Shown here: in pieces, positions 29,664 to 63,665 of the stretch
Position numbering within the stretch: position 1 is the stretch's first letter
How the letters are laid out: every line of letters starts with the position of its first letter
Assembly (NCBI GenBank): GCA_963707025.1
Contig: CAVPOM010000009.1
Span: 256,001-320,000 of the forward strand
Length of the DNA: 64,000 bases
Direction of reading: 5' to 3'
DNA from: an uncultured Verrucomicrobiae bacterium
GTDB taxonomy: Bacteria; Verrucomicrobiota; Verrucomicrobiia; Limisphaerales; Palsa-1400
Notes under the pieces: model-generated
The model's database searches: none
What the model saw: the letters and a program-made list of their open reading frames with translations, nothing else
What the model was told of the DNA's origin: nothing
Translations under genes and position numbers: made by a program

Positions 29664-30521
29664 TCATCCCCCTGGGGGCGGCACCACCGAGCCGTCGCAC
29701 ACCCAGTTGATGTCGGGCCTGCCGGGATCGGCCGCCTGGCCATTGATCGGGATGCAAATATAGGAGTATTTGAAATACCTGACGTGGGCATCGCTGAACA
29801 TGATGTTCGCCCCCGCGTCGTGCCGGGAGGATTCACGGGTGGTGTAGCACTGCGGGCTGCCCAGGATGTCCAAGTTGACGCTGGTGCTTCCGTAAAAGGG
29901 AGTTTCGTTCTCATGCGTGCGGTTGTCGGAAAACATCACGAAAGCAGAGGGATGCACCACGGCGGACTGCCTTAACCGCGTGCCATTGGGCTGACTCTCG
30001 GGAATGCCCTTGGAATTCATGCCATAGTTGAAAATGATCTGGCCATTGGGGATGGACGGGTCTATCGGCTGGAGATCCGAGGTGGGGCATTTGAAAATGG
30101 ATTTGCTGGTGTTGTAAACAGCCGAGGCGCCGGTAATGGCATATTCAAACAAAGGCTTGGACTGAATGTAGGGGGGAAGCGCGTTAAACCACGCGTCCGT
30201 TCCATAAGTGGTGCCTGTTTGCGCGTTCTCGAACTGGACATCAGTGAGGTCAACCCAGCTCGGAGTGTCCTCGTCGTAACCTGACGGGGTGTAGGGGGGG
30301 TCGGCGGGGATTTTGGTCAAGGGAAAGAATCCCCGGTAGTCGTCCAGGTACATGGTTTGGGCATATCCCCATTGTTTGAGGTTGCTGGAACAGGCGGCGC
30401 GATTGGCCTTTTCCTTGGCCTTGGCCAGGGCCGGAAGCAGCAGGGCCGCCAGAATCGCAATGATGGCGATCACCACCAACAGTTCGATCAGCGTGAAGGC
30501 CCGATTCTGTTTAGTGTTCAT
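29664..30521 (-). CDS. Prepilin-type N-terminal cleavage/methylation protein (DUF1559 / H-X9-DG type)
   Basis: [47 protein letters not shown]. Confidence 0.93.
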
Positions 30522-30671
30522 AAATCTTGCGCAATAATTCCTGGTTTCCAGGATTGCAACCGCCAGACAGATAACAGCGAACCCCCGCATCCTAATCCGG
30601 ACACATTACAATCAGGTGTCGGCATTGTGAAGATTGCGTCACAATTTATTCCCCGCGTGATGTTGGAAAAA

Positions 30672-47770: not shown

Positions 47771-47933
47771 TTTGCCGATCCACCCAAAAATGACCGGTTA
47801 CAAACATGCTTTCTTTTCCGTCTAAGAAAGAGTGGCCCGCGGTGTCGTATGGAGTGAACATGGTGTCCACCCAAAACCAGGCGGACGCCGGGCCGGCCCG
47901 ATGGTCCGCACCCGATTGTCGGGAATCGCCAGC

Positions 47934-48488
47934 ATGGCTTTAATGCAACCAGATCAGGCCAGAGCAAGGCCCGGATGCGAAACGATTGAGGAGCTGTTTG
48001 CCTCCCTCGAATCGCCCCTGTTGAGCTATGCCTTGCGCCTGGCCGGCGGGGTCGGCACGGCGGAGGACCTGGTGCAGGAAGCGTTTATGAAATTGCAGGC
48101 CCAGTTTAACGAAGTGCGCGAGCCGCGGCGGTGGCTTTACCGCACCGTCCACAACCTGGCCCTCAACCAGCGGCGCCGGGCCGGCAAGATCATTTCCCTG
48201 GACGCCAGCACCGCCGACGGCCCGGGCCAAGGGTGCGATCCCGCCGATCCCAAACCGCTGCCCGACGAGCAACTGGTCCGCATGGAGGGCATCGGCCTGG
48301 TGCGGCTCACCTTGGAAACGCTGGACGCGCGCAGCCGCGAACTGATCCGGCTCAAATTCAACGAAAACCTTTCTTACAAGGAAATGAGCGCGCGCACCGG
48401 CCTGACGACCGGCAATGTCGGTTACATCCTGCATTGCGCGCTCAAAAGCATGGCCGAAGAACTAGCCAGGAACGGAGTCGTGCCATGA
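47934..48488 (+). CDS. ECF RNA polymerase sigma factor
   Basis: AEDLVQEAF, WLYRTVHNLA, L..L..R.RELI.LKF.E.LSYKE....G...GNVGY. Confidence 0.93.
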   Translation: MALMQPDQARARPGCETIEELFASLESPLLSYALRLAGGVGTAEDLVQEAFMKLQAQFNEVREPRRWLYRTVHNLALNQRRRAGKIISLDASTADGPGQGCDPADPKPLPDEQLVRMEGIGLVRLTLETLDARSRELIRLKFNENLSYKEMSARTGLTTGNVGYILHCALKSMAEELARNGVVP

Positions 48489-48506
48489 AGCGCGGTGTTT
48501 CCCAGG

Positions 48507-48538
48507 AGATTAAGATTAAGAGTAAGAGTAAGAGTAGG
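48507..48538. repeat. Hexamer tandem repeat (AAGAKT)n
   Basis: agattaagattaagagtaagagtaagagtagg between sigma and anti-sigma genes. Confidence 0.75.
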
Positions 48539-48552
48539 AATGGAGGTTTGAC

Positions 48553-51500
48553 ATGAACCCCGAATTGCCCCCCGATAACCGCGCCGAGCTGGAGGCCAAA
48601 GTGACGGCCTTGCTCCTGGGCGAACTTACCGCCGAGGAAGCCGCCGCCTTGCGCCAGATGATGTCCCAGGATGCCGCGCTGGCCCAATTGCAGGAGCGGC
48701 TCAAGGCGACGCTGGCCCTGGTGCGCGAGACCGCCGCCACTTCCGCCGGCGAACTTTCCAAGCAACCCGCCCCGCTCAAACTCAGTCCCGCCCGGCGCGA
48801 AGCGTTGCTGGCGCATTTCAAAACGATAGCGCCCAAGGAGTTTGCCAAGCCGCGCCCCCGGGTGATTTCAAGGGTTGTGGAGTGGGCGGCTGTCGCCGCT
48901 ATTCTGTTGATATTGGCAGGAATGGTCTTGCCAAGCATGAGCGGCAGCAAGGCTAGATCCAAGGGCATGAGCGCCAGGATGTCCCTTGTGAATGGACGAG
49001 AAACGACGAGGTTTCCGGATGAGCCTCGACCCCAAGTGCAATCGAAGGGCGATTTCGCGGCCAGGGCCGGCGCAAACCTGTCCCGCTCGGTGAGTAGTGA
49101 GGGGTGGGTCGCCGCTCCAACCACCGCGAACCCCGCCTCACCACCCGCCATTCCGCCAACAACCCCCATTTACATGGGGAAAAGCGAGGAGAGCGGCGCC
49201 ACCGGCGCGGCGGAGCAGGGCGTGAAGCTGAATTTGCGCGGCGTCACCGTTGACAAGGCCCTGGATTTCCTGAGCGAGTCAGCGGGCCTTAACATCAACC
49301 GCCAGGCCAGCACCCAGGTTGGTGGAACGGTGGATTTGGTGAGTGAGACGCCGCTGACCAAGGACGAACTCGTTCCCTTTTACAACAAGGCCCTCGCCGA
49401 TAACGGCTTAACGGCCATTCAAGATAACAACACTCTGAACATCACGCGTCTTGAGGAGGCCCAAAATAACGTGGGAACTCCAGTCATCGTCCTCAACAAT
49501 TCCTTCGGGGATATTCCGCGAGATTCCCAAGTGGTGACAGAGGTGATTCCGGTTCACAGCCTCAATCCAGCTCAAGGGCTCAAGGATCTCAGCACTCCCG
49601 GTGCAGACAACCCATTCGCCTTATTTTTTGGTCGGGGTCGTGGCGGCGGTGGTGGTGGGGGCGGTGGTGGCGCTGCCAGCGCGAGCAGTACCTACCCACA
49701 ACAAGGCCAGGTCGCGCCGGTGGTATTCAACATTGATCCGATTTCAGGCAGTGTCATCTACATCACACCGGACAGTAACAACGAAGCCGTGGTGCAAGCC
49801 CTTCGGAATTTAGATCGGCCCAAACCAGCCGCGACGGTTGCGGGAAATGCTGCCACTAATGGATGGCCGGCCGGTGCGCCAACGATGGGCTTCTATGATG
49901 ATGATTCTTTGAACGGTCGTCCGGCCGGTGGCGGCGTTTATAGCATCAACGGGGTTGATGTCGTTCCGACAAACAGGAATCAGATATACTTTAATGATGG
50001 CAACCTGGATTTAAAGGCTCGTCCCCTTCAGGAGCAAATCGCCCAAAATGGAAAATCCTCCAGCACATCCAGCCAGCAAAATGCCTTAGTGATGCGGATG
50101 CAATCAGGTTCGCAATCCATGTCCTCCGCCACGCCGTCCGCCAACGGGCTTGGCGGCACCAGTGGCCTCGGCGGTGGTGGGTTTGGAGGCGGTGGTATTG
50201 GCGGTGGTGGCATTGGTGGCGGCGGCGGGACTGACTTGGGAGTGCAGGCGCCTTCCGCTCAGCCTGCAGGCATCCCACCAGCCGGTCTCGTCATCGAGGG
50301 TGTTCAACAAGGGGCGGGCGCTGGTGCCGTGGCGTCCAGCGATGGCAACACTGCTGGACGTGCCCGTGCGACTCGCGGCGGCCGTGGTGGCGCTCGTGGC
50401 GGCGGCAGGCGCGGTGGCGGCGGAGGAGGCGGAGGCAGCGGAGGCGGCGGGGGTTTTGTTGCGGGCGTCCCCACTGCGGCCAGCGCTCCCCCTACAACCT
50501 CGACCCCGGAACCTTCGCTTGGCGCGACGGTGCTGGCACTACGCCAGGCGCGTCAGGCCGCCGAAAACGGAAATGTCGCTGCGCCGCCCGCCAACCAAAG
50601 TGGCTCAGATAAGGAGGCCCTGGGACGCAACAGCAGTCTTGACTCCTACGCCGTCACCAACTTTGGCACTATCACTGATACCAAAACCGCCCCGGCAACC
50701 GAAAACGACTCCAAGGCGTTAGGCTTTTATTGGCGTCTAGGAAACGAGACTGTCAACAACGGCGCCGTAGGCGCCCAGGCTGGCACGGCGCCGCTTTTCA
50801 AAGGCGAGTTCGCCCTGGCCAATCCGTCGGGCATCTTCCCGGGAGCCGGAACGGCTGGCTCCAATCCCGGTCAAATTGCGCCCGCCGCGTCAGACAGCGT
50901 TCTCACCGGCGGAGTGAGAAAGCCGGCTCAGGCTGAGACAAATTTTGGTCGCGAAGAGCAAGCGGTCGCCGGTTCCTCCGTCGGGGAACCTCTGACAAGG
51001 TCACTCACTTTCTCGGCCACCGTTCCGCAGGAGTCCATCCAGCAGGCCCGTGTCGCTCCGACCAAACCCGCCGCGGCCGCCCCCAGCGATGTTGCCGTCC
51101 TCGGCGACCTTCCCGTCCTCGGAAAGCTTTTCAAGAAAGAAGCCGAAGCCGCTCCCGCCGCCACTCCTGCACCGCCGACCGCTGCTTTCCGCATGTCCCT
51201 CCAGGAGGCCGATGCGGCTCCGCCCAAACCCGCCTTTCCGCCTCCGACGCCGCAACCGGAAGTACCGACCCGCGACAATGCGTTCTCCACCTTCTCGCTC
51301 AACGTCAGCGATGTTTCCTTCAAGCTGGCGGCGGCGAGCCTGCAAAACGGTTCATTGCCGGATGCGTCCACCGTGCGGAGCGAGGAGTTCATCAACGCCT
51401 TCGATTATCGCGATCCCGAACCCGCTCCCAGCGCCGCCATCGGCTTTGCCTGGGAACGCGCGGGCTGGCCCTTCGCCCACAATCGCGACCTGCTCCGTTT

Positions 51501-52584
51501 CTCCGTAAAAACCGCCGCGCAGGGACGCCAGGCCGGCCGCCCACTGAACCTGGTTTTGCTCCTGGACAAATCCGGCTCGATGGAACGCGCCGACCGGGTG
51601 GCGATCATCCGCGAGGCCCTGCGTGTGCTGGCGTCGCAATTGCAGCCGCAGGACAAGCTCAGCGTGGTCGTGTTCGCGCGCACCGCCCGGCTGTGGGCGG
51701 ACGGCGTGTCCGGCAGCCAGGCCGGCGAACTGTTCGATGCCCTGGAGGCGCTCACCCCGGAAGGCGGCACCAATCTGGAAGAGGCGATGCGGCTGGCCTA
51801 CGAAGCCGTCTTCCGCCATTACCTGGCCAACGGCGAAAATCGGGTCGTCCTCCTCACCGATGGCGCGGCCAACCTGGGCGACGTGGAGCCGGAGAATCTG
51901 AAGAAGAACGTCGAGGCCAGCCGCACGCAAGGCATCGCGCTGGATTGTTTCGGCGTGGGCTGGGAAGATTACAACGACAATTTGCTGGAAGTCCTTTCCC
52001 GCGCCGGCGGAGGCCGCTACGGATTTATCAATATGCCGGAGGAGGCCGCAACGGGGTTCGCCGGACAACTGGCCGGCGCGCTCCGTGTCGCGGCATCGGA
52101 CGTGAAGGTGCAGGTCGAGTTCAACCCGGCCCGGGTGGCCTCCTGGCGGCAGATCGGTTACGCCAAGGACCAGCTCAAGAAGGAACAATTCCGCGACAAC
52201 ACCGTCAAGGCGGCGCAGATCGGCGCGGCGGAATCGGGCAACGCCCTTTACACGGTGGAAATAAATCCGGCGGGGGACGGCCCGGTTTGCACGGTGTATG
52301 TGCGTTATCGCGCGCCCGGCACGGCCACCTACTACGAACACGCCTGGGCCGTGCCTTACGACGGCGCGGCGGTCCCGTTGGATCAGGCCAGCCCGGCGAT
52401 GCGCCTGGCGGCGACCGCGACGGCGTTTTCGGAATGGCTGGCCACGAGTCCTTACGCCGGCGGAGTCACGCTGGACCAGTTGCTGGGCTATATGCGCGGC
52501 GTGCCGGAAATCTACGGCGCCGATGCGCGCCCCAAGCTACTGGAAACCATGCTTCGCGAGGCCAAAAGCATCACCGGCAAGTGA
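48553..52584 (+). CDS. Anti-sigma-like / secretin-fragment / YfbK-type vWA fusion protein
   Basis: N-terminal 'TALLLGEL..EE' anti-sigma-like helix, TM, Gly-rich linkers; C-terminal STFSLNV..SF, VRSEEFINAF, MIDAS DKSGSM, GGTN, LLTDG, DVKVQVEFNP, RQIGY. Confidence 0.85.
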   Translation: MNPELPPDNRAELEAKVTALLLGELTAEEAAALRQMMSQDAALAQLQERLKATLALVRETAATSAGELSKQPAPLKLSPARREALLAHFKTIAPKEFAKPRPRVISRVVEWAAVAAILLILAGMVLPSMSGSKARSKGMSARMSLVNGRETTRFPDEPRPQVQSKGDFAARAGANLSRSVSSEGWVAAPTTANPASPPAIPPTTPIYMGKSEESGATGAAEQGVKLNLRGVTVDKALDFLSESAGLNINRQASTQVGGTVDLVSETPLTKDELVPFYNKALADNGLTAIQDNNTLNITRLEEAQNNVGTPVIVLNNSFGDIPRDSQVVTEVIPVHSLNPAQGLKDLSTPGADNPFALFFGRGRGGGGGGGGGGAASASSTYPQQGQVAPVVFNIDPISGSVIYITPDSNNEAVVQALRNLDRPKPAATVAGNAATNGWPAGAPTMGFYDDDSLNGRPAGGGVYSINGVDVVPTNRNQIYFNDGNLDLKARPLQEQIAQNGKSSSTSSQQNALVMRMQSGSQSMSSATPSANGLGGTSGLGGGGFGGGGIGGGGIGGGGGTDLGVQAPSAQPAGIPPAGLVIEGVQQGAGAGAVASSDGNTAGRARATRGGRGGARGGGRRGGGGGGGGSGGGGGFVAGVPTAASAPPTTSTPEPSLGATVLALRQARQAAENGNVAAPPANQSGSDKEALGRNSSLDSYAVTNFGTITDTKTAPATENDSKALGFYWRLGNETVNNGAVGAQAGTAPLFKGEFALANPSGIFPGAGTAGSNPGQIAPAASDSVLTGGVRKPAQAETNFGREEQAVAGSSVGEPLTRSLTFSATVPQESIQQARVAPTKPAAAAPSDVAVLGDLPVLGKLFKKEAEAAPAATPAPPTAAFRMSLQEADAAPPKPAFPPPTPQPEVPTRDNAFSTFSLNVSDVSFKLAAASLQNGSLPDASTVRSEEFINAFDYRDPEPAPSAAIGFAWERAGWPFAHNRDLLRFSVKTAAQGRQAGRPLNLVLLLDKSGSMERADRVAIIREALRVLASQLQPQDKLSVVVFARTARLWADGVSGSQAGELFDALEALTPEGGTNLEEAMRLAYEAVFRHYLANGENRVVLLTDGAANLGDVEPENLKKNVEASRTQGIALDCFGVGWEDYNDNLLEVLSRAGGGRYGFINMPEEAATGFAGQLAGALRVAASDVKVQVEFNPARVASWRQIGYAKDQLKKEQFRDNTVKAAQIGAAESGNALYTVEINPAGDGPVCTVYVRYRAPGTATYYEHAWAVPYDGAAVPLDQASPAMRLAATATAFSEWLATSPYAGGVTLDQLLGYMRGVPEIYGADARPKLLETMLREAKSITGK

Positions 52585-52609
52585 CCATGAAACTGCGATA
52601 CGCATTCTT

Positions 52610-52705
52610 CAATCCCAAAGGGATTGCATCATGCAGCCCAGGGTTGGCCCGATTCCCAGAGGGACTACCCTGGGTGGCGGCATTTAAGCCCGACAACCCT
52701 GAAAG
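52610..52705. repeat. REP-like element (CCCAGGGT..ACCCTGGG hairpin)
   Basis: caatcccaaagggattg..gcccagggttg..ctaccctggg..caaccctgaaag. Confidence 0.55.
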
Positions 52706-52723
52706 AGACCTCTGCAAAACGCC

Positions 52724-52796
52724 TGTAGCGGCGGTCTATGACCGCCGCCATGCCGTTATTTCCCCTGGTTTGCGGCGGTCACAGACCGCCGCTACA
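52724..52796. repeat. Inverted GTAG-REP pair
   Basis: TGTAGCGGCGGTCTATGACCGCCG ... CGGCGGTCACAGACCGCCGCTACA. Confidence 0.85.
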
Positions 52797-52815
52797 TGAC
52801 CAATCAGTCAAATAT

Positions 52816-55800
52816 ATGAAAACACCCCTCGTTGCGCTTTGCGCTCTTTTGCTCGCCGGTTGTGTTGCAGGCGCCGGCTCCAAACCGGCGGGTTCTCCCG
52901 CGACGCCGGTCACGCTGACGGATTTCAAACTGGTGGGCAATCTCAGCGGCGACCTGGCCGACTTCACCCTCACCGCCACCGCGCATGTCGAGGACGCCCG
53001 GGGCGGCTCGCTCGATTTGCTCTCCGGCCCGGTCGCGCTCACCGCCATGGACACCAATCGCAACGAACACATCCGCGCCGACCACAATCATTTCTACCTG
53101 GCCTTTGACCGGCGCGGCGTCTTTCCCGTCAAGGTGCGGTTCAGCGCCGCCGTGCGCCAGGTGGACGGCTGGAACGCGCTGGATTTTCATGTCGCGCCCA
53201 GCGTGCTGCAGCCGGTGGTGCTGCAGGGACTGGCGGCGGAAACGCAATTCCAGTTCCCCGGCGCCGCCCGGCCCGACCGCAGCGGCAGCGACTTTCTCAG
53301 TTTCCTGCCCGCCGGCGGCGCGGTCAAATTTTCGTGGAAGGAAGTCCCGCCGGAAACGGAAGGCAAACTCTTCTTTTCCGCCGAGATGTGGTCGCAAGTC
53401 AACGTCCTGCCCGGCCTGATGCGCCAGGCCGCGCTGCTCAATTTCAAGGTCATGCAAGGCGAGCTGAACCGCGTCACCCTGCTGCTGCGCGGCGAGGGCG
53501 AAGTCACCCGCGTGCAGGGCGATCAAGTGCTGGCCTGGAATCCGCCCGAACCGGTGCCCAATTCCGCCGACCGCCGTCTGGTCATCCAGCTCAATCAGCC
53601 GCAGAAGGACCAGTTCGTCATCCTGGTGCAGATGCAGACGCCGCTGGGGGCGTTTCCGCAGACGGCGGACGTGCTGCAATTGCGGCCGGAGAACGCCACG
53701 CGCTTTGCCGGCTACTTCCGCATCGTCAACGAAGGGGCGGTGCGGCTGGAGGTGGCCCAGGCCAGCGGCGCCTCGCAAATCTCCCCCGATCAATTTCCCG
53801 AAAGCGACGCGACCCGGGCCATCTTCCGCGCCGCAGGGAACCAGCGCTTTGCCTACCGTTTTTCCGGGGCGGACTTCGCGCTGCGAATTCAGGCGGACCA
53901 GATTCTGCCGGAGCTGGCCGTGTCGGAACGTGCTGGCTTATCACCTCGGCGAAAACGAACTGGTGATTGACGCCGAAATCGAGCTGGACATCCGCGAGGC
54001 GCCCTTGCGCGAACTGCTGCTGCAAGCGTCCCCAAAGGCTACGCCATCGCCCGCCTCAGCGCCTCGGGCTTGAGCGATTATTTCCTCACCGAGCCGCCCG
54101 GCGACACGAATGCCGCGCTGCGGCTGGTTTATGGCCAGCCGGTCTCCGGCCGGCAGCTGGTGCAACTGCGCCTGGAACACAACCAGGCGCTGGGCGAGGC
54201 GCAATGGACGCTGCCCCGCCTGGAGGTTCCCAAAGCCAAGTCCGTGCGCGGCTACGTCGGCGTGTCGGCGGACCGGGCTTTCGCCTCACCGCCGGAACGC
54301 ACGCAGGGGCTGACCGAAATCGCCACCGCCTTTTTCCCGGCAAGCTGGCCGGCATCCAGGCGGCCTTCCGCCTGACGAGCGTGAGCGACTCGGCCTGGCA
54401 GGCGACCGTGCGCGTCGAACGCCTGCCGCAGACCGTGCAGGCCGACGGGCTGCATCTGTTTTCCATCGGCGAAGGCATCGCCTACGGCAGCAGCGTGATC
54501 AATTATGTCGTGTCCGGCGCGCCGGTGGCGGCGTTCAAGGTGGAATTGTCCGACGAGTATTACAACGTCGAGTTCACGGGCAAGGACATCCGCAACTGGC
54601 AGAAGACCAACGGCGGTTACGTGGTGCAATTGCACACGCCCGGTGTCCGGCGCTTACACGTTGCTGGCCACTTACGAGCGGCCGTTCAAGGCGCAGGGCG
54701 AGACGCTGGCCTTCACCGGCGCGCGTCCCGCTGGACGCCCAATCCGAGCAGGGCTACACCCTCATCATCAGCGCCTATCAGTTCCAGGTGAAGCCCGACC
54801 GAGGTTTCGCCCGGCCTGCTGCCGCTGGAGCCGGGCGAGGTGCCGCCCGAATACCGCCTCTTTTTCGACGCGCCCATTCTCGCGGCCTATCGCTACGCCT
54901 CGCGCCCGTTCGATTTGAAACTCGCCCTCCAGCCCGCTGGCGCAGGGCGATTCGCTCAGCCAGGTCGTGGACCGGGCCTCGCTTACCAGACCCGCATTTC
55001 CAAGGAAGGCCAGGCGCTGACCGACGTGCGCTACTTCGTCAAGAACCGCGGCAACCCCAACTTCCGCCTGACGCTGCCCCAGGGAGCGCAGTTGTGGTCG
55101 GCGTCCGTCAACGGCGCGCCCGCCGTGCCCGTCTCCGACGGCCAGGCCAGTCTGATTCCCCTGCCGCAGAGCGCCGACCCCAATGCCGTGCTGGAATTGG
55201 ATTTGAAACTGGCCTCCAAATCCGCCAATGCTGAAAAGGTCACGGTCAACGCCCCCATCGCTGACGCCCCGGTCATGCTGGCGGAATGGACCCTCGCGCC
55301 GGACCCCGGCCAGCGCCTGGTCTATCAGAGCGGCGACCTCCGGCCGGCGCGCGCCGCGCCGGACGTGTCGGGTTTTGCGCAACTGGCCCGCCTGTGGGAA
55401 GGACGTGGCACGGGGACCTGTTTGACGCTGCTGTGCGCCGTCCTGGTCTTGTTGACACTGGCGCTGGCGCTCCGCCGGGCGGCGCGCGCCGGCGCCGGCA
55501 AATATGGCGCGTCGCATCTTTGCATTTTGAGTTTGGGACTGATCGCCTTCGCCATTGTTCTGGGCTGCGCGGCGCAACTGGCGCAACTGGCCGGGGCCGC
55601 GCGGGGTTCGGCGCCCGCCGGCCTGGCCTTTCTCGCGCCGGTGCAACAGCCGGGCAGCGCCTTGCAGATCGCCGTGTCGAACCTCGCCGACAAGACTGCT
55701 TTGGCGGCCGTCCTGGGCTGGGGCTGGCCCGCGCTGGCCGCCCTCCTGCTCTGGGCAGGCGGATGGATGGCCGGCACGCCGCTGCAAAAACTGGCCGCTG

Positions 55801-58800
55801 CCGTCGTCGGCTGGACCCTGCTCGCCTGGGCGGCGCTCAGATTCCCGAACGGCGCGCCCGCCTTTTTTTGGATACTGCCGGCGTTTCTGGTGTGCCACGT
55901 CCTGTTCCCCGCTCTGCGCCAATTCTCCCGTTGGCCGCGCAAACCGGCGGCGGCCCCCACGGTGCCCTCCAGCGGGGCCGCGCCCGCCACCCTGGCGTTG
56001 CTGACTGCCGGCCTGTATTGGATGAGTTGCGGCCACGGACTGGTGCTGGGCGCGGAGGCCCCATCGGCCAAGTCCGCCCCCATTGCGGCCCCGGCCATTC
56101 CTGACTCCGTCACCCAGACCATCCGCGTGGAAGACAAACTGGCCCTGGCCACGGCCAAAATCCGCTGGCAGGCTCTCAAGGGCCAGGCCCTGCCGCTCCT
56201 CTCCGAGCCGGCGGTCTTGACGCATGTCGTGTTTCCAGCCCGCTCGCTCAAGCTCCAGCCGGCGCCGGCGGGCTCAAAATTCTCGCAACAAGTTGTGGCT
56301 CAGGAAAACGGGGTATTTGATCTCGAGGTGCAATACGAGATTCGCGTTTCGCCGGACCAGAGCGGAGCGGGCTTCGCCCTGCCGTCGCCCTATGGGTTGA
56401 TCAACCGCCTCAGTCTCACGGTCGTCAATCTCGATGTGGATGTGCTCTCGCCGCAGGCCGTTTCCATTAAATGCGACCACGCCACCAGCAACACGGTGGC
56501 GACTCTGATCTTGTCGCCGGCGGACAGCACGATTAGTTGGAGGCCGCGCAGCCGCGACGTCAAACGGGAGAAGCCGGTGTTTTACGCGGAGATGGCGCAA
56601 CTTTATGTGCCCTCGGGCGGGGTGGTCGAAGGCGCGCACGCCGTGTCCATTCGTCCGGCCCAGGGCGAACTGGCGGAACTGACTTTCGACGTGCCGCCCG
56701 GCGCCACCGTCACCGATGTGATTGATCCGGCGCAACCTGGCAACGGAGCGGCCGCGCCCGCGCCCGCCTGGCGCTTCGATCCGGACACGCGCAAGCTGCG
56801 CGTGGCCTTGAACCCGGCCCTCTCGCGGCCCTTCGCCCTGCTCATCCGCTCCCAGGTCGCCACCGGCCCGCTGCCGTATGCGCAATCACTGGGTTTGGTC
56901 ACGGTGGATAACGCGGCGGGTCAGATTGTCGGCAGGCCGGCATCGCCACCAGCGATGAAGTCCAACTGGACACCGTCACCGCCAACTCCTTGTCGCCCAT
57001 CAACCTGGAGGATTTCCCCATGGATGCCGCCTCCGCCTTTCGGGGTCAAATTCCGGGACTGACTCTGCGCCGCGCCTTCCGTTACTCCGACGCGGGGGCC
57101 ACCGCTCAGCTTGAACGCTTCGGCGGTCGAACCGGATGTGCGCGTGGAAACCAGGGACACCTTGTCGCTGGGCGAGGACCACACCACGCTGGCGGACAGT
57201 TTCACCGTGGACATCACACGGGCGGGCATATTCCGCTTGAGTTTTCGTCATGCCGGCAGACTTTGACGTGGATTCCATCAGCGGCGCGGCCTTGAGCCAG
57301 TGGACGGAGTTAAAAACCGAGGCCGGGCGCGTCATCACCCTGCACCTTTCCGGCAAGACCCAGGGCCGCCAGGAATTTGCCATCAGCCTGGCCGGCCCGG
57401 GCGTGAAAACCGCCCAGGGCTGGAAGGTGCCCGCAAGTGGTCCTGCGCGAAGCCAACAAGCAGCGCGGCACCCTGCTGATTGTGCCCGAGCAAGGCATGC
57501 GCCTGCAGGCCGCCGCCCGCGAAGGCTACACCCAACTGGACCCGCAGAAATCCGGCATCCGCCAAAAAGGGGTGCTGGCCTTCAGCCTGTTGCAGACGCC
57601 CTCCAACCTCACGCTGGACATTGAGCAGGTGGACCCGTGGATCGAGGTCACCAGCCTGCAACACGCCGCCGTCAGCGAAGCCCAGGTCAAGATCGCCGCC
57701 AATCTGCAGTATCAGATCAAAAATGCCGGCCTGAGGAGCTTTCGCGTCTTCCTTCCCGTCAATGCCGAGAGCGTCCGCTTCCAGGGCGAGCAGGTTGCCG
57801 ATTTTCTCAAGACGACCAACGCCCCCGCCAATGGCTTGCAGGAATGGGAAGTCAAGCTGGACCGCCGCGTCATCGGGCAGTACTTGCTGCAAGCCACTTA
57901 TCAAACCCCCATCCCCGACCAGGCGGCGGAGGCGGTCCTGTGGGGCGTGCAGGCCGCCGAGGTCAATCTGCAGCGCGGTTTCGTTACCGTCCAATCCGAC
58001 CGCCGCCTGCAGGTGACGGTGGACCATCTGCCCGCCGCCTTGCAACTGGCCGAATGGCAGAGCATTCCGCGCCTGCTGGAAAAGGACCTCGGCTCCGTTT
58101 CCGCCAGCCTGACCTACCGGCTGCTGGAGCCGGGCTTCCAACTCCCCTTGAAACTCCAGCGCCATGAGGCCGCCAGGCTGCTCCCCGCCCACGTCAACAA
58201 TATCACCTTCAATTCCGTCATCTCCGACGACGGCGTCATGCTCACCCAGGCCCGCCTGGAAATCCTGCCCGGGGACAAGCGCCTCCTCAGCCTCACCCTG
58301 CCCAAGGACGCCGGCTTCTGGTTCGCGTTCGTCAACGACAACGGGGTCTGGCCGTGGCGCGAACAGACCAGCATCCTGATCCCCCTGGAGCAGCAGTCGC
58401 ATGGCGACAAGCCGATCAGCGTGGAAGTTTTCTACGAATGCCGCGCCGGCCTGGCGGGAGCGGACTCGCTGCATTTGGAATTGCTCGCGCCCAAATTCGA
58501 TTTGCCCCTGGAAAACATCACCTGGCGCGTTGCGCTGGGCGACAAATGGCAGGTCAAACATTGGAGCGGCTCACTCCAATTGCAGGCCCAGGAAGCTCAA
58601 ATCGCCCGCGGCGGCGCTGGACCCGCAAATCTATCTCCAGACGCAAAACAGCCTGCGCCTGGCGCGCACCGAGGAGGCGCGCGAGGTTTTCGACCTGGGC
58701 AACAGTTCCCTGGTCAAGGGCAATCCCCAGCAGGCCCGCCGCGCCTTCCAAGCCGCTTACGGCCTCTCCACCCACGACGCCGCCTTCAACGAGGACGCCC

Positions 58801-59279
58801 GCGTGCAACTGCACAACATCAAGCTGCAGCAGGCCCTCATCGGCCTGAACGTCCGCCAGTCCGCCGCGGCGGGCGACGCCGGCGCGCTGGGCGGCAAGCT
58901 GCGCGATCTGCGCAGCCGCCCGGAGCTGAATTACACCCAGCAGGACGCCAAAGACATCCTTGACAACAACAGCGCCGACGAAAACGCCGCCTTCACGCGC
59001 CTGGCCGAGAAACTCATCCAGCAGCAGGACGCCGCCGTCAGCCACCCGGCCGGCATCCGCGCGAGCATTCCCGAACAAGGCCGCGTGCTCACCTTCCAGC
59101 GCGCCGTGGCGGTGGAAGAGCGGGCCGATTTGAACCTCCGGCTCGACGCTTCCATTGTGCCCGCCGCCTCCGTGGGGATCCGGCTGCTCATCCTGGCCGG
59201 CACCCTCCTCGGCTTCGTCCTTTTCGCCCTGGCTCTGCTCTCCCTGCGCCCCGTCGGCGAGGAACCAACTGCTTCTTAA
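52816..59279 (+). CDS. Giant (~2150 aa) lipoprotein/integral membrane protein, split by multiple probable sequencing frameshifts
   Basis: Lipobox LLAGC; overlapping ORF fragments (52738, 53705, 54070, 53967, 54505, 54840, 56990, 57250, 57437, 58401) continue one protein-like sequence; central TM bundle ~55400-56050 and C-terminal TM. Confidence 0.75.
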
Positions 59280-59306
59280 TCTTAATCCTAATCTTGATCT
59301 TAATCT
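59275..59306. repeat. Hexamer tandem repeat (TAATCT)n
   Basis: cttaatcttaatcctaatcttgatcttaatctc at the giant gene stop. Confidence 0.75.
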
Positions 59307-59523
59307 CCCACGCAGCGCACCCCTGCCCTGCGGAATTGGGTCGCGCTGGCCGGGTTCCTCGTTCTCGCGCTGGCCGATCTTGGCCATTGCCCCGTTGGCG
59401 CCGGTCTGGAATCGCCACCGTTGCACTGCCAAGCGGCTTGCGCTTTGAGGTTGCCCGGCGGTGGCAATTGTGATTTACTAATAGCGTTCTATGCAACCGC
59501 GGCGACGACAATCCTTGGCGGAC

Positions 59524-59760
59524 ATGTTCCTAGTTTGGGGATTTGTGCTGTCGTTTTTCGCTTTATTCGGGGCGGCCTGTTTCGAGGCTTACAAGATTGT
59601 CGCGGTTATTCCGGCCGCGTTTGAATCATCCCATGCCTATTGGCGCGCTCCCATGACGGTCGCGGACGACGATTCCCCGCCGAATGCGTATGGCCGCCCG
59701 CGAACGACTGCCAGGCAACGCGCCCAAGACGAGAACCGCGCCCCCGGACAAGACCGATGA
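59524..59760 (+). CDS. Possible small membrane protein
   Basis: One hydrophobic N-terminal helix; no homology recognised. Confidence 0.3.
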   Translation: MFLVWGFVLSFFALFGAACFEAYKIVAVIPAAFESSHAYWRAPMTVADDDSPPNAYGRPRTTARQRAQDENRAPGQDR

Positions 59761-59961
59761 TGATAAAACGGTCAAACTTCAACAATGCCCATGACGCAAC
59801 CGGGGCAACTCTCCATCTTCCGCACAACAGCCGGTGAACAGTTATGGTTCCATCTTCAACCGCCTTGGCGTGCCAGCTTGTCCCACCGTTCAAAAGTTTC
59901 TCAATTCACTATTCCAAATTCACCATTCCCTGTTCCCCTCTCTTCATTTGGCATTTTGCAT

Positions 59962-60552
59962 TTATAATTTTGCATTCCCCGTCCCACCCGCCAGCAGCAG
60001 GCGCACGTCCACCGCTTCCATTCCGGCGGCGCGGATGGCGGCCAGGCCCAGATCGGTGTCCTCGTAGGCCCGGCAATTTTCCGGCGCGACTCCCAGGCGG
60101 CGCGCCGCTTCCAGATAAATGTCGGGCGCCGGTTTTTGGCGGGCCACGTCTTCGCTCACCACGACGGCCTGGAACAGATGCTCGATGCCCAAATGATGGA
60201 GCATTTGCGTGACGATGCGGCGGGTCCCGCCCGAGGCCACCGCCATGGGCAGTTGGCCGCTGTGGTCGCGCGCAATACTCGCGATCCGCTCCACGGCGCG
60301 GACTTGCGGGATCAGTTGTTCAAAAGTCAGTTCCTTCTCCTTGGCCACCGCCGCGTAGTCCATCGGCCGGCCCTGCTCGGCGCCGAGCATTTTCACAATG
60401 TCCCGGGCCGGCACCCCGCCCAGCGAGTAAAAGCGGCCCTCGGCGAATTGGAGGCCATGAGCCTCCGTCACCTGCTTCCAGGCGCGCCAGTGCAGAGGCA
60501 TGCTGTCGGCCAGCGTGCCGTCGCAGTCGAAGATCAGTGCTTGCAGGGGCAT
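59962..60552 (-). CDS. HAD-family phosphatase (beta-PGM/YqaB-like)
   Basis: IFDCDGTLADSM, VASGG, KPAPDIY, YEDT..G..A. Confidence 0.93.
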   Translation of the reverse strand: MPLQALIFDCDGTLADSMPLHWRAWKQVTEAHGLQFAEGRFYSLGGVPARDIVKMLGAEQGRPMDYAAVAKEKELTFEQLIPQVRAVERIASIARDHSGQLPMAVASGGTRRIVTQMLHHLGIEHLFQAVVVSEDVARQKPAPDIYLEAARRLGVAPENCRAYEDTDLGLAAIRAAGMEAVDVRLLLAGGTGNAKL

Positions 60553-60558
60553 GAGAGG

Positions 60559-61645
60559 CTAAAGGGCCAGGGCGGCCAGCCGTTGTTCCAGGTCATGGGC
60601 CATCAGCGGCTCGATCAGCGGGTCGAGGTCGCCTTCAATAAAAACCGATAAATTGTAGAGCGTCAGTTCGATGCGATGGTCGGTGACGCGGTTTTGCGGA
60701 AAATTGTAGGTGCGGATGCGCTCGTTGCGCTCGCCGGTGCCGACCTGGTCTTTGCGGTGGGCGGCGTATTTGGCGTTTTCCTCGGCCACTTTGCGCTCCA
60801 GCAGGCGCGAGCGCAGGACGGTCAGGGCCGTGGCCTTGTTCTTTTGCTGCGAGCGTTCGTCGGCGCAGCGCACGATCAGGCCGGTCGGCTTGTGGATGAT
60901 TTGCACCGCCGAATCGGTAGTATTGACGCCCTGGCCGCCCTTGCCGGAGGCGCGGCAGACGTTGATTTCCAAGTCCTCAGGCTTGATTTCCAGGTCCACC
61001 TCCTGCGCCTCCGGCAGCACGGCCACGGTGCCGTGCTGGTGTGGATGCGCCCCTGCGCCTCGGTCGCCGGCACGCGCTGGACGCGATGCACGCCGCTCTC
61101 GTATTTGAGCCGCTTGAAAACATCCTGTGCCGGTGATCTGGAAAATGATTTCCTTGAAGCCGCCGAGGTCGGACGGGCTGGAATCCAGTGTTCTCCACCT
61201 TCCAGCCGCGCGCTTCCGCATAGCGCGTGATACATGCGGTAGAGATCGGCCGCGAACAGGGCCGATTCCGATCCGCCCGCCCCGGCGCGGATTTCGATGA
61301 TGGTGTTGCGCGAATCCGCCGGGTCCGGCGGCGCCAGGCCCTGCATGGATTTTCCGCGCCAGGACTTTTTCCTCGGCCTCGAGCTGGGCGATTTCTTCCT
61401 TGGCCATCTGCGCCAGCTCGGACTTCGCCCGGCTCGGTTTGGAGCATGGCGCGCGTTCTCCGCCAAGTCGGCCAGCGTCTTGAGATAGCGCTGGCCGCCG
61501 CCGGTCAAATCCTTGAGCCGGGCGTATTCGCGGGCCAATTCCTGCGCGCGTTGCTGGATTGTCGAACAGCCTTGGGGTCGCTCAACGCGGTCTCCACCTC
61601 GGCCAAGCGGCGGGCGAATTTTTCGATGTGAGGGCGCAAATCCAT
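60559..61645 (-). CDS. prfA: Peptide chain release factor 1 (several frameshifts)
   Basis: [24 protein letters not shown] (PAT motif), [33 protein letters not shown] spread over three frames. Confidence 0.93.
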
Positions 61646-61763
61646 GGGCAAAAAAGATGGGGTTTCGCGTGAAGCCAGAGGGGCGCGGCCCGCAAAAGCA
61701 GCCGCCCGCAAAAGTTGCGGCTCCTGCGGGCGGTCGGGCGGAAAGGGGCTACTTTCTCTTTCG

Positions 61764-61996
61764 TTATTTGGCGGCGTGGGCGGCCTGGGCGGCCTGGGTC
61801 TTGGCCATGCGCTGCTGGAATTTGTCCACGCGGCCGGCGGTATCCACGAACTTCTGCTGGCCGGTGTAGAAGGGATGGCAGAGCGTTGCAGATGCCGACG
61901 ATAATCGTGCGGCTTGGTGGAACGCGTCTTGATCACGTTGCCGCACGCGCAACGGATTTCCGCTTCCACATATTTCGGATGAATCTCGGTCTTCAT
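61764..61996 (-). CDS. rpmE: 50S ribosomal protein L31 (frameshifted)
   Basis: [18 protein letters not shown] then [21 protein letters not shown] in another frame. Confidence 0.93.
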
Positions 61997-62126
61997 AAAT
62001 CAAGGCCCGACAAAATACCCGCCCCGGCCCGGTCTTCAAGCCCTATTTTCATCAATTTTTGCGCGCTCCTCCGCCCGCCGGCGGAAAAAATGTCTGCTTT
62101 TGCTTTCCGCGCACATAGATAGTCAA

Positions 62127-63665
62127 ATGGCGGAGATGGATGACTTTGATTTGCTGGCGGCATACAGCGGCAGCGGTTCGGAAGCCGAAGCCGCCTTCAC
62201 CACGCTGACCGAACGCTGCGTCCGGCTGGTCTATTCCGCCGCCTTGCGCCAGGTCCGTGATCCGCACCTGGCGGAGGAAGCCACGCAGGTGGTGTTTGTG
62301 CTGCTGGCCAGAAAGGCGCATTCCTTTGGCAAGGGCGTCATCCTGTCCGCCTGGCTGCTGCGCGCCACCCGCTTCACTTCCACCAACCTGCTGGTCAGCC
62401 AATACCGCCGCATCCGGCGCGAACACCAAGCCTTGCAAATGCAAACCACATCCACCGGCGATTCTTCCTGGGAACAAATCGCCCCGCTCCTGGACGAAGC
62501 CATGTCCCGTCTGGGCGAAAAAGACCGTAACGCGCTGGCGCTGCGTTTCTTCGAGCAAAAATCGCTCGAAGAAGTCGGAGTGGCGCTGGGCATCGGCACC
62601 GTCACGGCGCAAAAGCGCGTCTGGCGGGCGGTGGACAAGCTGCGTCAATACTTTGCAAATCACGGCGCGGCTTTTTCCGCCGCCACAATCACCACGGCGC
62701 TTTCCGCCCACGCCATTCACGGCGCGCCCTCCGGTCTGGCCGCCGCCGTGGCGGCCAGCGCCGCGCTCAAAGGCACCGCCGCCACCTCATCCACCGCAAC
62801 CCTGCTCAAAGGAACTTTAAAACTTATGGCCTGGACCAAATTAAAAATCGCCGCCGTCGCCGTGGGAGTTCTCCTCGCCGGCGGAACCACCACGATCATG
62901 GTGAAATATCTTTATCCGTTCGAACCAGAATATCAGGGCAAAACTCTAACTTATTGGTTGGCAAGTCTCGGGAACAACCAGTTGCAATTTCTCAACTTGA
63001 GGCCGCAGCCCGACCAGCCCGCCGCCGAGGCTTTTCAATCCATGGGCGTCAAAGCTGTGCCTTTCCTTCGTCGGGAATTGCGTTCCCTGAATTTATCTCG
63101 CCGGAAGCACGCTGCCGATGCGGCCCACGCCATCGGGCCAGCCGCAAAAGAGTTGGAGCCGGATTTGCTTGCGTCGGCCATTACAACCGCCAATTCAAGC
63201 CACGATCCCTACTCTGAAATCTGGTCCCTGGCCGCAATGGGACCGGAAAGCATCGGCCTACTGACCAATATGTTTACCAACCAAAATAGATGGGCGCGCA
63301 TGAGAACAGCCACCGCATTTCAAATGGCAGATTATGATGCTGAACCGGCTGTTCAGGCCCTCCTGCAGGCACTTGAGGATGCAGATCCTGGCGTCCGGTG
63401 TGAAGCGGGCCAGGCCTTGGGGCATGTTCATAAACAATTGGACGTGGTTCTTCCCGCGTTGCTCAAGAACCTTAAGGATCCAGACGCCGACGTGCGGCGG
63501 GCTACTGCGGATACCCTGGGAATGCTAGGGGCGGATGCAAAATCGGCGTTCCCGTTCCTTTTGGATGCCTCTCGCAATGATCCCGACCCAGCCTTCGGCC
63601 CCTGGTGCGCCGGCACCCTTAAAAGAATTGACCCCGAAGCCGCCGCCAAGGCCGGGGTGAAATAG
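62127..63665 (+). CDS. ECF sigma factor with TM and C-terminal HEAT repeats
   Basis: sigma2/sigma4 motifs (AEEATQVVF, LDEAM..L...DR..L.LRFFEQ), 'MAWTKLK' + TM, 'YQGKTL.YW', repeats 'ALL.AL.D.D..VR..A..ALG'. Confidence 0.92.
   Translation: MAEMDDFDLLAAYSGSGSEAEAAFTTLTERCVRLVYSAALRQVRDPHLAEEATQVVFVLLARKAHSFGKGVILSAWLLRATRFTSTNLLVSQYRRIRREHQALQMQTTSTGDSSWEQIAPLLDEAMSRLGEKDRNALALRFFEQKSLEEVGVALGIGTVTAQKRVWRAVDKLRQYFANHGAAFSAATITTALSAHAIHGAPSGLAAAVAASAALKGTAATSSTATLLKGTLKLMAWTKLKIAAVAVGVLLAGGTTTIMVKYLYPFEPEYQGKTLTYWLASLGNNQLQFLNLRPQPDQPAAEAFQSMGVKAVPFLRRELRSLNLSRRKHAADAAHAIGPAAKELEPDLLASAITTANSSHDPYSEIWSLAAMGPESIGLLTNMFTNQNRWARMRTATAFQMADYDAEPAVQALLQALEDADPGVRCEAGQALGHVHKQLDVVLPALLKNLKDPDADVRRATADTLGMLGADAKSAFPFLLDASRNDPDPAFGPWCAGTLKRIDPEAAAKAGVK

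Follow-up and report, generated by a model that had tools for sequence, protein, structure and literature searches.

Why should a predicted anti-sigma factor carry fragments of secretins between its membrane helix and its vWA head, and where do such fragments come from? The question is raised by three co-oriented genes (47934-59279, forward strand) in the genome of an uncultured Verrucomicrobiae bacterium (GCA_963707025.1, contig CAVPOM010000009.1, positions 256,001 to 320,000), the window being the whole stretch of 64,000 nucleotides that was analysed. The first gene (47934..48488, +) encodes an ECF sigma factor of 184 aa, as had been claimed, with Sigma70_r2 and Sigma70_r4_2 (PF04542 and PF08281) and TIGR02937 all above cutoff, and its dN/dS between this genome (G000) and a sister genome (G003) is 0.18. 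The proposal of a conserved three-gene unit was borne out, as the genes stay together across Verrucomicrobiota with the giant third gene co-conserved, and the titles of the best 80 giant-gene loci are mostly from this phylum. Among the neighbours of these 80 loci there is no conserved fourth gene or recombinase, the commonest being an IS200-like (Y1_Tnp) transposase family (8/80). The cultured strain Chthoniobacter flavus has the three-gene system. A short genus-wide intergenic repeat separates sigma from anti-sigma (48489..48541, +), and the equivalent stretch of G004 is found in many copies in G000, G001, G003 and G004.

Upstream of the sigma gene lies a predicted autoregulatory ECF promoter (47822..47849, +), CTAAGAAA-N12-GTGTCRTA, a motif that precedes the sigma gene in 50 of 52 cases. 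The top site genome-wide scores 34.3 bits, and three sites in G000 exceed 20 bits vs none in two shuffles of 2.5 Mb. On this motif evidence the operon is likely to be self-regulated. A genome-wide scan of G000 placed no site near T2SS or T4P genes, so the proposed link of signalling to these systems finds no counterpart in the predicted regulon. Sites above 19 bits were likewise missing from the donor loci examined and from the vicinity of the donor genes in G000.

The middle ORF (48553-52584, 1343 aa) ends in a YfbK-type head (51265..52584, +) with Pfam matches to vWF_A, VWA and DUF3520/YfbK_C, and its MIDAS (DKSGS, 51565-51579) is intact, as originally described. The MIDAS-type residues D, S, S, T, and D are invariant in 61 sequences and the head has a dN/dS of 0.10 between G000 and G003. 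At the other end, the cytoplasmic domain (48553..48837, +; dN/dS of 0.11 for the same pair) had been called anti-sigma-like. A weak zf-HC2 match (E 0.0013) speaks for this, but the match of the N-terminal family profile to RsiW (E 0.028) is level with one to bacterioferritin. Among family members, 47 of 61 show a weak zf-HC2 match that stays below cutoff, and of 10 distant homologues five have the full domain with a score above it. The HxxxCxxC zinc ligands of ZAS anti-sigmas are absent from this copy, which has no Cys in its N-terminal 95 aa, and we describe the domain as ZAS-like with the ligands lost. The protein has one hydrophobic helix (aa 108-127), forming a single TM segment (48874..48960, +) that the first-pass annotation had paralleled with a prepilin helix. 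The likeness to pilin alpha1 is by eye only: no N_methyl, GFxxxE or TIGR02532 match was found, and the true prepilin at 29664-30590 does have it. In relatives, a pilin domain or GspF piece comes after the TM helix. The other motif coordinates that we checked proved correct.

The third gene (52819..59279, +) encodes a giant envelope protein and is frameshifted in this assembly, with 20 one- or two-base indels at 53930-58594 relative to G003, which belongs to the same genus. The single ORF of ~2150 aa that had been reported is thus absent here, although intact in relatives, where giants of ~2100-2500 aa occupy long unbroken frames. We favor assembly error as the cause, since the release-factor gene at 60559-61538 is likewise frameshifted. 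Contigs of relatives are without several of the window indels (e.g., 54339, 54798, 57430), and none of the contigs shown spans an indel in an identical strain. The designation as a lipoprotein or membrane protein holds in part: hydropathy indicates several TM helices and an LxAGC lipobox-like motif occurs in the four giants of genus g1, but it is not seen in the N-termini shown for other genera. Structure models suggest that M1-aminopeptidase-N-like beta domains make up two lobes, accompanied by a TM bundle at the centre, an inserted helical segment and a TM helix at the C-terminus. In these models the repeats match the N-terminal domain of M1 aminopeptidases (Z 10.5-13.4, rmsd 3-4 A, ~135-165 aligned), an OST subunit (6s7o_E, presumably ribophorin I; Z 13.8-14.9) and ITIH1 (Z 8.4-9.0). 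Unlike M1 aminopeptidases, the giant would have ~5 such domains per lobe, twice, around the TM bundle. Fold matches are confined to the N-terminal beta domain, with no catalytic (HExxH) domain in the folded parts (~1360 of 2169 aa), and searches with pieces of the giant gave no peptidase match, nor did any family of Pfam or NCBIfam reach its cutoff. An Ig-like or integrin identity was rejected after Foldseek matches to an 823-aa model proved diffuse (TM <0.2), and the reading of one small domain as a vWA hybrid domain (Z 7.7) was dropped for an M1-N-like domain with an insert. An ESM Atlas search from the locus returned unnamed clusters only, with recognition below threshold. When the vWA head was modelled in complex with Mg and the final domain of the giant, the prediction gave a median of 0.08 against a mark of 0.32, and is counted neither way.

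It is the periplasmic linker between the TM helix and the head of the anti-sigma that holds the borrowed material, and in this genome its pieces resemble the DNA of resident secretin genes. Piece 1 (49199..49626, +) comprises N0, the start of N1 and an N2 loop of the GspD N-half gene (G000 C6:475436-477244), at 75% DNA identity over 395 bp (E 2e-70) and 63.5% aa identity over 137 residues, and clusters with the G000 and G003 donors in a codon tree (support 98/96). The N0-like block noticed earlier is confirmed by Pfam type_II_gspD_N0 (27.1 bits, cutoff 27) and TIGR02517 (E 4e-11, aa 227-345). Piece 2 (49647..49827, +) matches the start of the GspD C-half gene (C6:474169-475476) at 69% DNA identity over 181 bp and 77% aa identity over 48 residues, and supplies the second half of an N domain. 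The Secretin_N-like block is therefore real but chimeric, as its first half comes from the N-half gene and its second from the separate C-half gene. Piece 3 (50005..50181, +) corresponds to the C-terminal tail of the GspD N-half gene (77% DNA over 95 bp, E 2e-12; E 1e-11 in a separate search). Piece 4 (50676..50928, +) is a segment of an Amuc_1098-type secretin (72% DNA over 176 bp), whose own copy (C14:148267-151311) ranks just sixth among donor loci, making piece 4 a miss in the own-genome test. Short Amuc_1098-like snippets follow (50959..51135, +; E 0.11 and E 0.008), including LGDLPVLGKLF, which we take to be like the amphipathic helical loop of secretins. The supposed secretin C-terminal motif, VLGDLPVLGKLFK, indeed matches this genome's Amuc_1098-type secretin (E 0.008; NF042912, E 0.005). 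The claim of secretin parts without a barrel also stands, as PF00263 is absent from the middle protein and just one motif of 13-20 aa matches. Misassembly as the origin of this mosaic was rejected because the pieces are in frame, have 69-77% DNA identity to their donors, are common to two sister genomes and are present in a cultured strain.

Across homologues the linker is hypervariable, with a length of 357-1265 aa, and its content differs by lineage. Matches to the G000 ORFome were found for 39 of 60 linkers, nearly all to envelope proteins, with 21 unmatched, and locally shuffled linkers gave none. Relatives carry pieces of pilin, GspF, Wzc, Wza, BamA POTRA, LysM, and autotransporter repeats, with Wzc the commonest donor (16 matches). 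For secretin pieces the own-genome donor is best in 10 of 18 cases and that of a sister genome in four more; the C. flavus piece is 69% identical to its own donor vs 62% to the next. Codon trees group the anti-sigmas of G004 (99/95, 99/97) and G002 (99/99) with their own GspD, and a single anti-sigma clade, as expected of one shared origin, is rejected for three secretin pieces (p-AU 0.0067, 0.0006, and 0.03). The Wzc cassette, which appears to be circularly permuted and would complete a fold without TMs, matches its own Wzc best in 11 of 16 genomes, and in all 16 the own Wzc is among the top three. Lineage-diagnostic residues match the own Wzc at 212 of 656 positions vs 72 expected, and lineage-specific indels are shared. 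The protein tree rejects one anti-sigma clade for this cassette (p-AU 0.015), whereas the DNA tree does not (0.067). At synonymous sites, which are near saturation, the cassette shows weak sharing with the own Wzc (0.48 vs 0.43), so this copying is either old or partly replaced by convergence. There are further misses, with the own donor second of five in G023 and leading on bits but not identity in G199, and the pilin piece is vertically shared among several genera. Secretin pieces also occur in M56/BlaR1-type proteins of the same genomes, which means that the capture habit is not specific to the three-gene operon. Taken together, we hold with high confidence, on sequence comparison, that the linker has repeatedly captured pieces of its own genome's genes. 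As the pieces vary by lineage and usually match own-genome donors best, the linker is best seen as a recurrent integration site for envelope genes and not as a T2SS-specific chimera. The idea of a sensor built from T2SS/T4P parts was right about the secretin parts and too narrow about the rest, there being no fixed design.

What these pieces do is less certain. The explanation that we lean toward, while granting it somewhat less than an even chance, is that they serve as self-mimicking bait or docking sites and are under selection, which would alert the cell when its envelope machines are attacked or fail. The ZAS-like N-terminus would keep the sigma at the membrane, and pieces of secretin, pilin, GspF, Wzc, Wza, and BamA would reach the linker by DNA copying, likely through repeated ectopic recombination that either brings in a complete cassette or updates a short part of one already resident. 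Through their resemblance to the cell's own subunits they could be bound or cut by whatever engages the donor machines, candidates being orphan subunits, quality-control or foreign proteases, and phage or predator proteins. Binding or cutting would pull or cleave the linker, leading to degradation of the anti-sigma and freeing the sigma, which may then transcribe the operon and one to three small exported proteins. The giant protein would be the main output or a partner of the vWA head. A bolder form, which we regard as rather doubtful, makes the anti-sigma an integrated-decoy receptor whose linker samples secretins, pili, Wzc/Wza, and BAM and is kept self-matched by recurrent gene conversion, with phage, predator, or protease action against these machines tripping an ECF response that builds the giant.

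One competitor, about as doubtful, is that the linker needs just length and a periplasm-compatible sequence; pieces of exported proteins, seeded by recombination at shared TM helices and Gly-rich GGC repeats, would be tolerated and then decay while the vWA head alone senses. The secretin pieces have a dN/dS of 0.78 (177 codons) between G000 and G003, vs 0.25 for the donors and 0.10 for the head, and the first 200 linker residues reach 0.65 in another close pair. GC3 is lower in the linker than in the vWA region in 47 of 47, and both this and the secretin-piece value fit relaxed constraint. Linker length varies widely, Gly-rich runs occur in donors and linker alike, and the bias toward such donors is moderate, given that exported and membrane proteins account, by a crude estimate, for 52% of the coding residues of G000. 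A passive spacer sits poorly, however, with the purifying selection on the stretch with the Wzc cassette (dN/dS 0.15-0.34 in five pairs), where amino acids follow the own Wzc even with synonymous sites near saturation. Nor does it account for the same few trans-envelope machines recurring as donors across classes, or for the loop motif LGDLPVLGKLF in 22 of 47 full linkers vs 0.02 in shuffles. If that motif, N0, LysM, POTRA, and the Wzc base instead served to anchor the head, whether at the outer membrane, at the wall, or on machines of the cell itself, sensing could be mechanical (membrane distance) or through a vWA ligand. We consider this improbable, as one good anchor would suffice with no call for repeated replacement from many donors, and the motif is missing from 25 of the 47 linkers. 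The original proposal, in which the system is dedicated to sensing the assembly of pili or secretins, gains from the finding that all significant donors in G000 are secretins, and N0 with the chimeric N domain could fold. It appears very unlikely, given that Wzc is the commonest donor across homologues, that the T2SS/T4P genes of G000 are without a promoter site, and that the pieces here are near neutral.

An ECF sigma paired with a vWA/DUF3520 anti-sigma has already been described in the literature (ECF226 and ECF289; Casas-Pastor et al., 2021, PMC7826278). In the sections of that article describing these groups, ECF226 is found in Acidobacteria, Planctomycetes, and Verrucomicrobia, with a putative anti-sigma at +1 that has one TM, DUF3520, and a von Willebrand domain. 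Compared by group description, both this phylum range and the +1 single-TM DUF3520/vWF anti-sigma agree with the present locus. The same description has context conservation ending at the anti-sigma and promoters not conserved, and mentions no captured envelope pieces, whereas here the giant third gene and the promoter (50/52) are conserved and such pieces are present. ECF289 resembles our system in its vWA-DUF3520 fusion, one TM, and predicted autoregulation, but is 100% proteobacterial with the promoter CCCAAGGA / CGTCTxA, compared to CTAAGAAA / GTGTCRTA in Verrucomicrobiota here. The main texts of the articles searched made no mention of ECF226, and a search on secretin-bearing anti-sigmas or BlaR1 proteins in Verrucomicrobia and on YfbK anti-sigmas returned nothing relevant by title. 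We found no precedent for own-gene capture in a bacterial anti-sigma in a largely open-access literature. Alpha-2-macroglobulins, bacterial ones included, have a bait region, a stretch of variable, low-complexity sequence flanked by conserved domains, through which proteases could be reported. Here no thioester or macroglobulin domains were identified, and it is genes of the cell itself that supply the variable stretch. A parallel in process is the major integration clade of plant NLRs (Bailey et al., 2018, PMC5819176), in which transposition or ectopic recombination has repeatedly and independently brought host-gene domains, described as baits, into one receptor locus. Repeated independent uptake of own genes at one receptor locus is common to both. 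The NLRs are unrelated, eukaryotic, and cytoplasmic, while in the present case the site is a bacterial periplasmic anti-sigma arm, resident cassettes are partly updated, and the bait role is putative.

The signal of vWA/DUF3520 anti-sigmas is given as untested in the ECF group descriptions (PMC7826278). If the captured pieces are functional, they would name candidate triggers and so make this signal directly testable, and the system would represent a new bacterial way of watching the cell's own envelope machines. Annotations of secretin, Wzz, or POTRA on such proteins are misleading in any case. Should the pieces prove neutral, the locus would still document, in a natural setting, how domains are shuffled within a genome while the process is under way.

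Three co-oriented genes on the plus strand form the operon, namely an ECF sigma gene (47934-48488), a middle gene (48553-52584) whose 1343-aa ORF encodes the predicted anti-sigma, and a giant envelope-protein gene running as ORF pieces from 52819 to 59279. The first-pass annotation had read this trio correctly, except that the giant gene is broken here rather than a single intact ORF. Compared with its counterpart in G003, a relative of the same genus, it has 20 indels of one or two bases, and assembly error is the likelier cause of its frameshifts because a nearby gene 1.3 kb beyond it (60559-61538), which we take from its GGQ motif to encode a release factor, is likewise frameshifted. Frameshifts are dense across 53930-62000, and many consist of a G inserted after a C run, which suggests a systematic assembly error. 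An ECF sigma at 62100-63665 carries HEAT repeats and a TM-like segment as fused parts. In the middle protein, the proposed YfbK-type vWA domain was recovered as vWF_A, VWA and YfbK_C (DUF3520) at aa 905-1313, and the GspD-N0-like block as a GspD N0 match at the Pfam cutoff, with TIGR02517 over aa 227-345 (E 4e-11). As had been proposed, it lacks a full secretin, the barrel being absent from profile matches, but the suggested prepilin-like TM segment does not carry the prepilin motif.

The trio is kept together elsewhere. A piece of the giant gene matches 29 of 41 related genomes (the window's own genome, G000, counted), and in 20 loci chosen from the strongest matches the vWA gene always lies upstream of the giant; the sigma is there as well in 17, and the remaining three are cut off by a contig edge or by the end of the retrieved sequence. 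A one-genome-per-species scan found the giant gene in 483 relatives; among the best 80, about 10 of which are contigs of the 20-locus set, the vWA gene is upstream in 68 (the other 12 lie at contig edges) and the sigma is present as well in 53. Phylum-wide, 11 of 150 sampled genomes match the giant gene, and all three genes are present in each of the 10 loci fetched. One locus (G033) has a tandem pair of vWA anti-sigma genes between sigma and giant. In 50 of 52 loci the sigma has a promoter-like motif, CTAAGAAA-N12-GTGTCRTA, in front of it. Other copies in the genus stand mostly before small exported proteins, three of them CarboxypepD_reg, rather than before donor genes, the envelope genes matched by the anti-sigma. 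Such orphan copies, at contig C11:77484-78461 of G000 and in loci L290-L296, mark the small exported proteins as a candidate mini-regulon.

The intact G003 giant has an internal duplication, and its hydropathy profile indicates a signal peptide, a TM bundle in the middle and one further TM at the C-terminus. Its first lobe is predicted to be a string of beta domains (pLDDT 86.7, pTM 0.48). In fold searches these match N-terminal domains of M1 aminopeptidases (Z 10.5-12.1, rmsd 3.1-3.9) and, at Z 13.8, an OST subunit. The second lobe closes with a domain of this fold that also carries a conserved helical insert (pLDDT 77.6; Z 13.4, rmsd 3.2, 150 aligned). The family numbers 7646 representatives (E up to 0.001), and the fold by itself points to no function. 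A paralogue at G000 C7:445138-452700 (L033:10169-17714), also frameshifted, has a pilin domain inserted at the TM region; its neighbours are a further ECF sigma and a short gene resembling an anti-sigma.

The periplasmic linker of the anti-sigma is pieced together from genes of the same genome. The middle gene matches the N-half gspD gene of G000 (75% DNA identity over 395 bp and 77% over 95 bp), the adjacent GspD C-half gene (69% over 181 bp) and the Amuc_1098-type secretin (72% over 176 bp); sliding windows gave 21 matches below E 0.05, every one to one of these genes, and the reversed control gave 3. The split GspD lies at G000 C6:474169-477244, with N0 and Secretin_N repeats in one gene and the barrel in the next, and its N-half is a separate frame also in the relatives found. 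Within the linker, the first half of N1 is followed by an N2 loop and then by the closing half of an N domain taken from the GspD C-half gene, and the joined halves could fold as one chimeric domain. Unlike the conserved N-terminal and vWA parts, the linker is mostly unalignable between species and ranges from 357 to 1265 aa (47 full copies). Among the 60 linkers with 100 aa or more, 39 match the G000 ORFome (E<0.01) and shuffled linkers give 0 matches. The matches are to Wzc (16), Amuc_1098 (11), pilins (8) and a pilin-domain lipoprotein (4), GspD N-half (6), other GspD (3) and an M56 chimera (2), with single matches to GspD C-half, GspF, LysM, two large repeat proteins and one other; two are off-frame, to the operon itself. 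Pfam adds Secretin_N, STN, PATR, LysM, Poly_export, TPR and POTRA (30 proteins; 10 partial proteins). By a crude count, 52% of the coding residues of G000 belong to exported or membrane proteins, so the bias toward envelope donors is real but moderate. Three non-pilin proteins of G000 (C4:24909-28273, C6:458561-459886) end in a pilin-like domain.

Secretin pieces largely track their own genome. In a comparison with secretin loci from 20 genomes, 18 pieces in 8 linkers scored. The best match came from the piece's own genome for 10 and from the sister genome for 4, all of them G000/G003 cases in which the own donor tied or came second; for 2 pieces the search did not recover the own donor, and the 2 misses were the Amuc_1098-type piece 4 of G000 (50676-50928) and a 25-bit match. 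A G004 piece shares 73% DNA identity with its own donor along some 870 bp, and the next long match has 66%; this linker contains most of its own GspD N-half, and the G004 anti-sigma gene (L013/L104) is in two frames, split near a copy of a genus-wide intergenic repeat. Own donors also came first for G002 and G015 (repeat tests of pieces already among the 18) and for C. flavus (first of 5), second of 5 for G023, and ahead on bits only for G199, while the G142 linker, compared with distant genomes, contains parts of the genome's own secretin (77%), Wzc and BamA. In codon trees, with clade groups named before tree building, each secretin piece groups with its own lineage's donor and a single anti-sigma clade is rejected (p-AU 0.0067 for N0, 0.0006 for the C-half start, 0.03 for N2-N3). 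A pilin piece common to several genera looks like one older, inherited capture.

In 16 genomes the Wzc cassette was ranked against 16-17 candidates; the genome's own Wzc took first place in 11 and was never below third. Eight cassettes group in a clade of their own that follows the shape of the Wzc tree; one clade holding every cassette is rejected on protein (p 0.015), though not on DNA (p 0.067). Of 656 sites with lineage-diagnostic residues, 212 agree with the own Wzc where 72 would be expected, and these cluster in a loop and the terminal helix; in a post hoc split, the own Wzc came first in 12/16 for the ends and 5/16 for the core. These results point to whole re-captures as well as partial updating of a cassette already in place. 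Cassettes share codons with the own Wzc barely more often than background (0.48 vs 0.43; higher in 12/16), and therefore amino acids were kept while synonymous sites drifted.

Capture of own envelope genes into the linker is well supported. As to what the pieces do, donor choice, the kept self-matching residues and the analogy with plant NLR integrated domains (PMC5819176) suggest that they may serve as self-mimicking bait. Selection on the linker is mixed. The stretch with the Wzc cassette has a dN/dS of 0.15-0.34 in 5 pairs (vWA 0.05-0.14), and an LGDxPxxGxLF-type motif occurs in 22/47 linkers vs 0.02 in shuffles; the function of the secretin loop that it resembles is described in PMC6532946. 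Between G000 and G003, the captured secretin pieces have a dN/dS of 0.78, compared with 0.10 for vWA, 0.11 for the N-terminus, 0.18 for sigma and 0.25 for donors. Because the pieces in G000 are decaying, the alternative that the linker is an arm needing only suitable length and a sequence compatible with the periplasm, and so tolerating whatever pieces enter it, remains strong beside the bait reading.

M56/BlaR1-type proteins of G000, G005, G016 and G023 carry secretin pieces too, often near-own; in those at G000 C18:182081-186409, L058, L229 and L230 the periplasmic part is put together from Amuc_1098-type secretin and GspD pieces, and these proteins, assigned to the M56/BlaR1 type by their sequence, would form a second sensor class with the same capture habit. 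An IS200-like (Y1_Tnp) transposase family, found near the operon in 8/80 loci (L113:7752-8498, L124 and six more), is a possible route of DNA capture. In L113 it lies between anti-sigma and giant, where the window has a repeated intergenic element (52590-52790).

The sigma and vWA/DUF3520 anti-sigma architecture is already known from ECF226 and ECF289 (PMC7826278). By the published group descriptions the phylum of ECF226 fits; however, that group is stated to lack context or promoter conservation and the operon here conserves both, so we describe it as working like an ECF226/289 pair and do not file it as a member. Among the papers searched, we found none that describes own-genome capture in a bacterial anti-sigma. 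The phenomenon is real, and it is the self-sampling linker, rather than the trio, that constitutes the finding.
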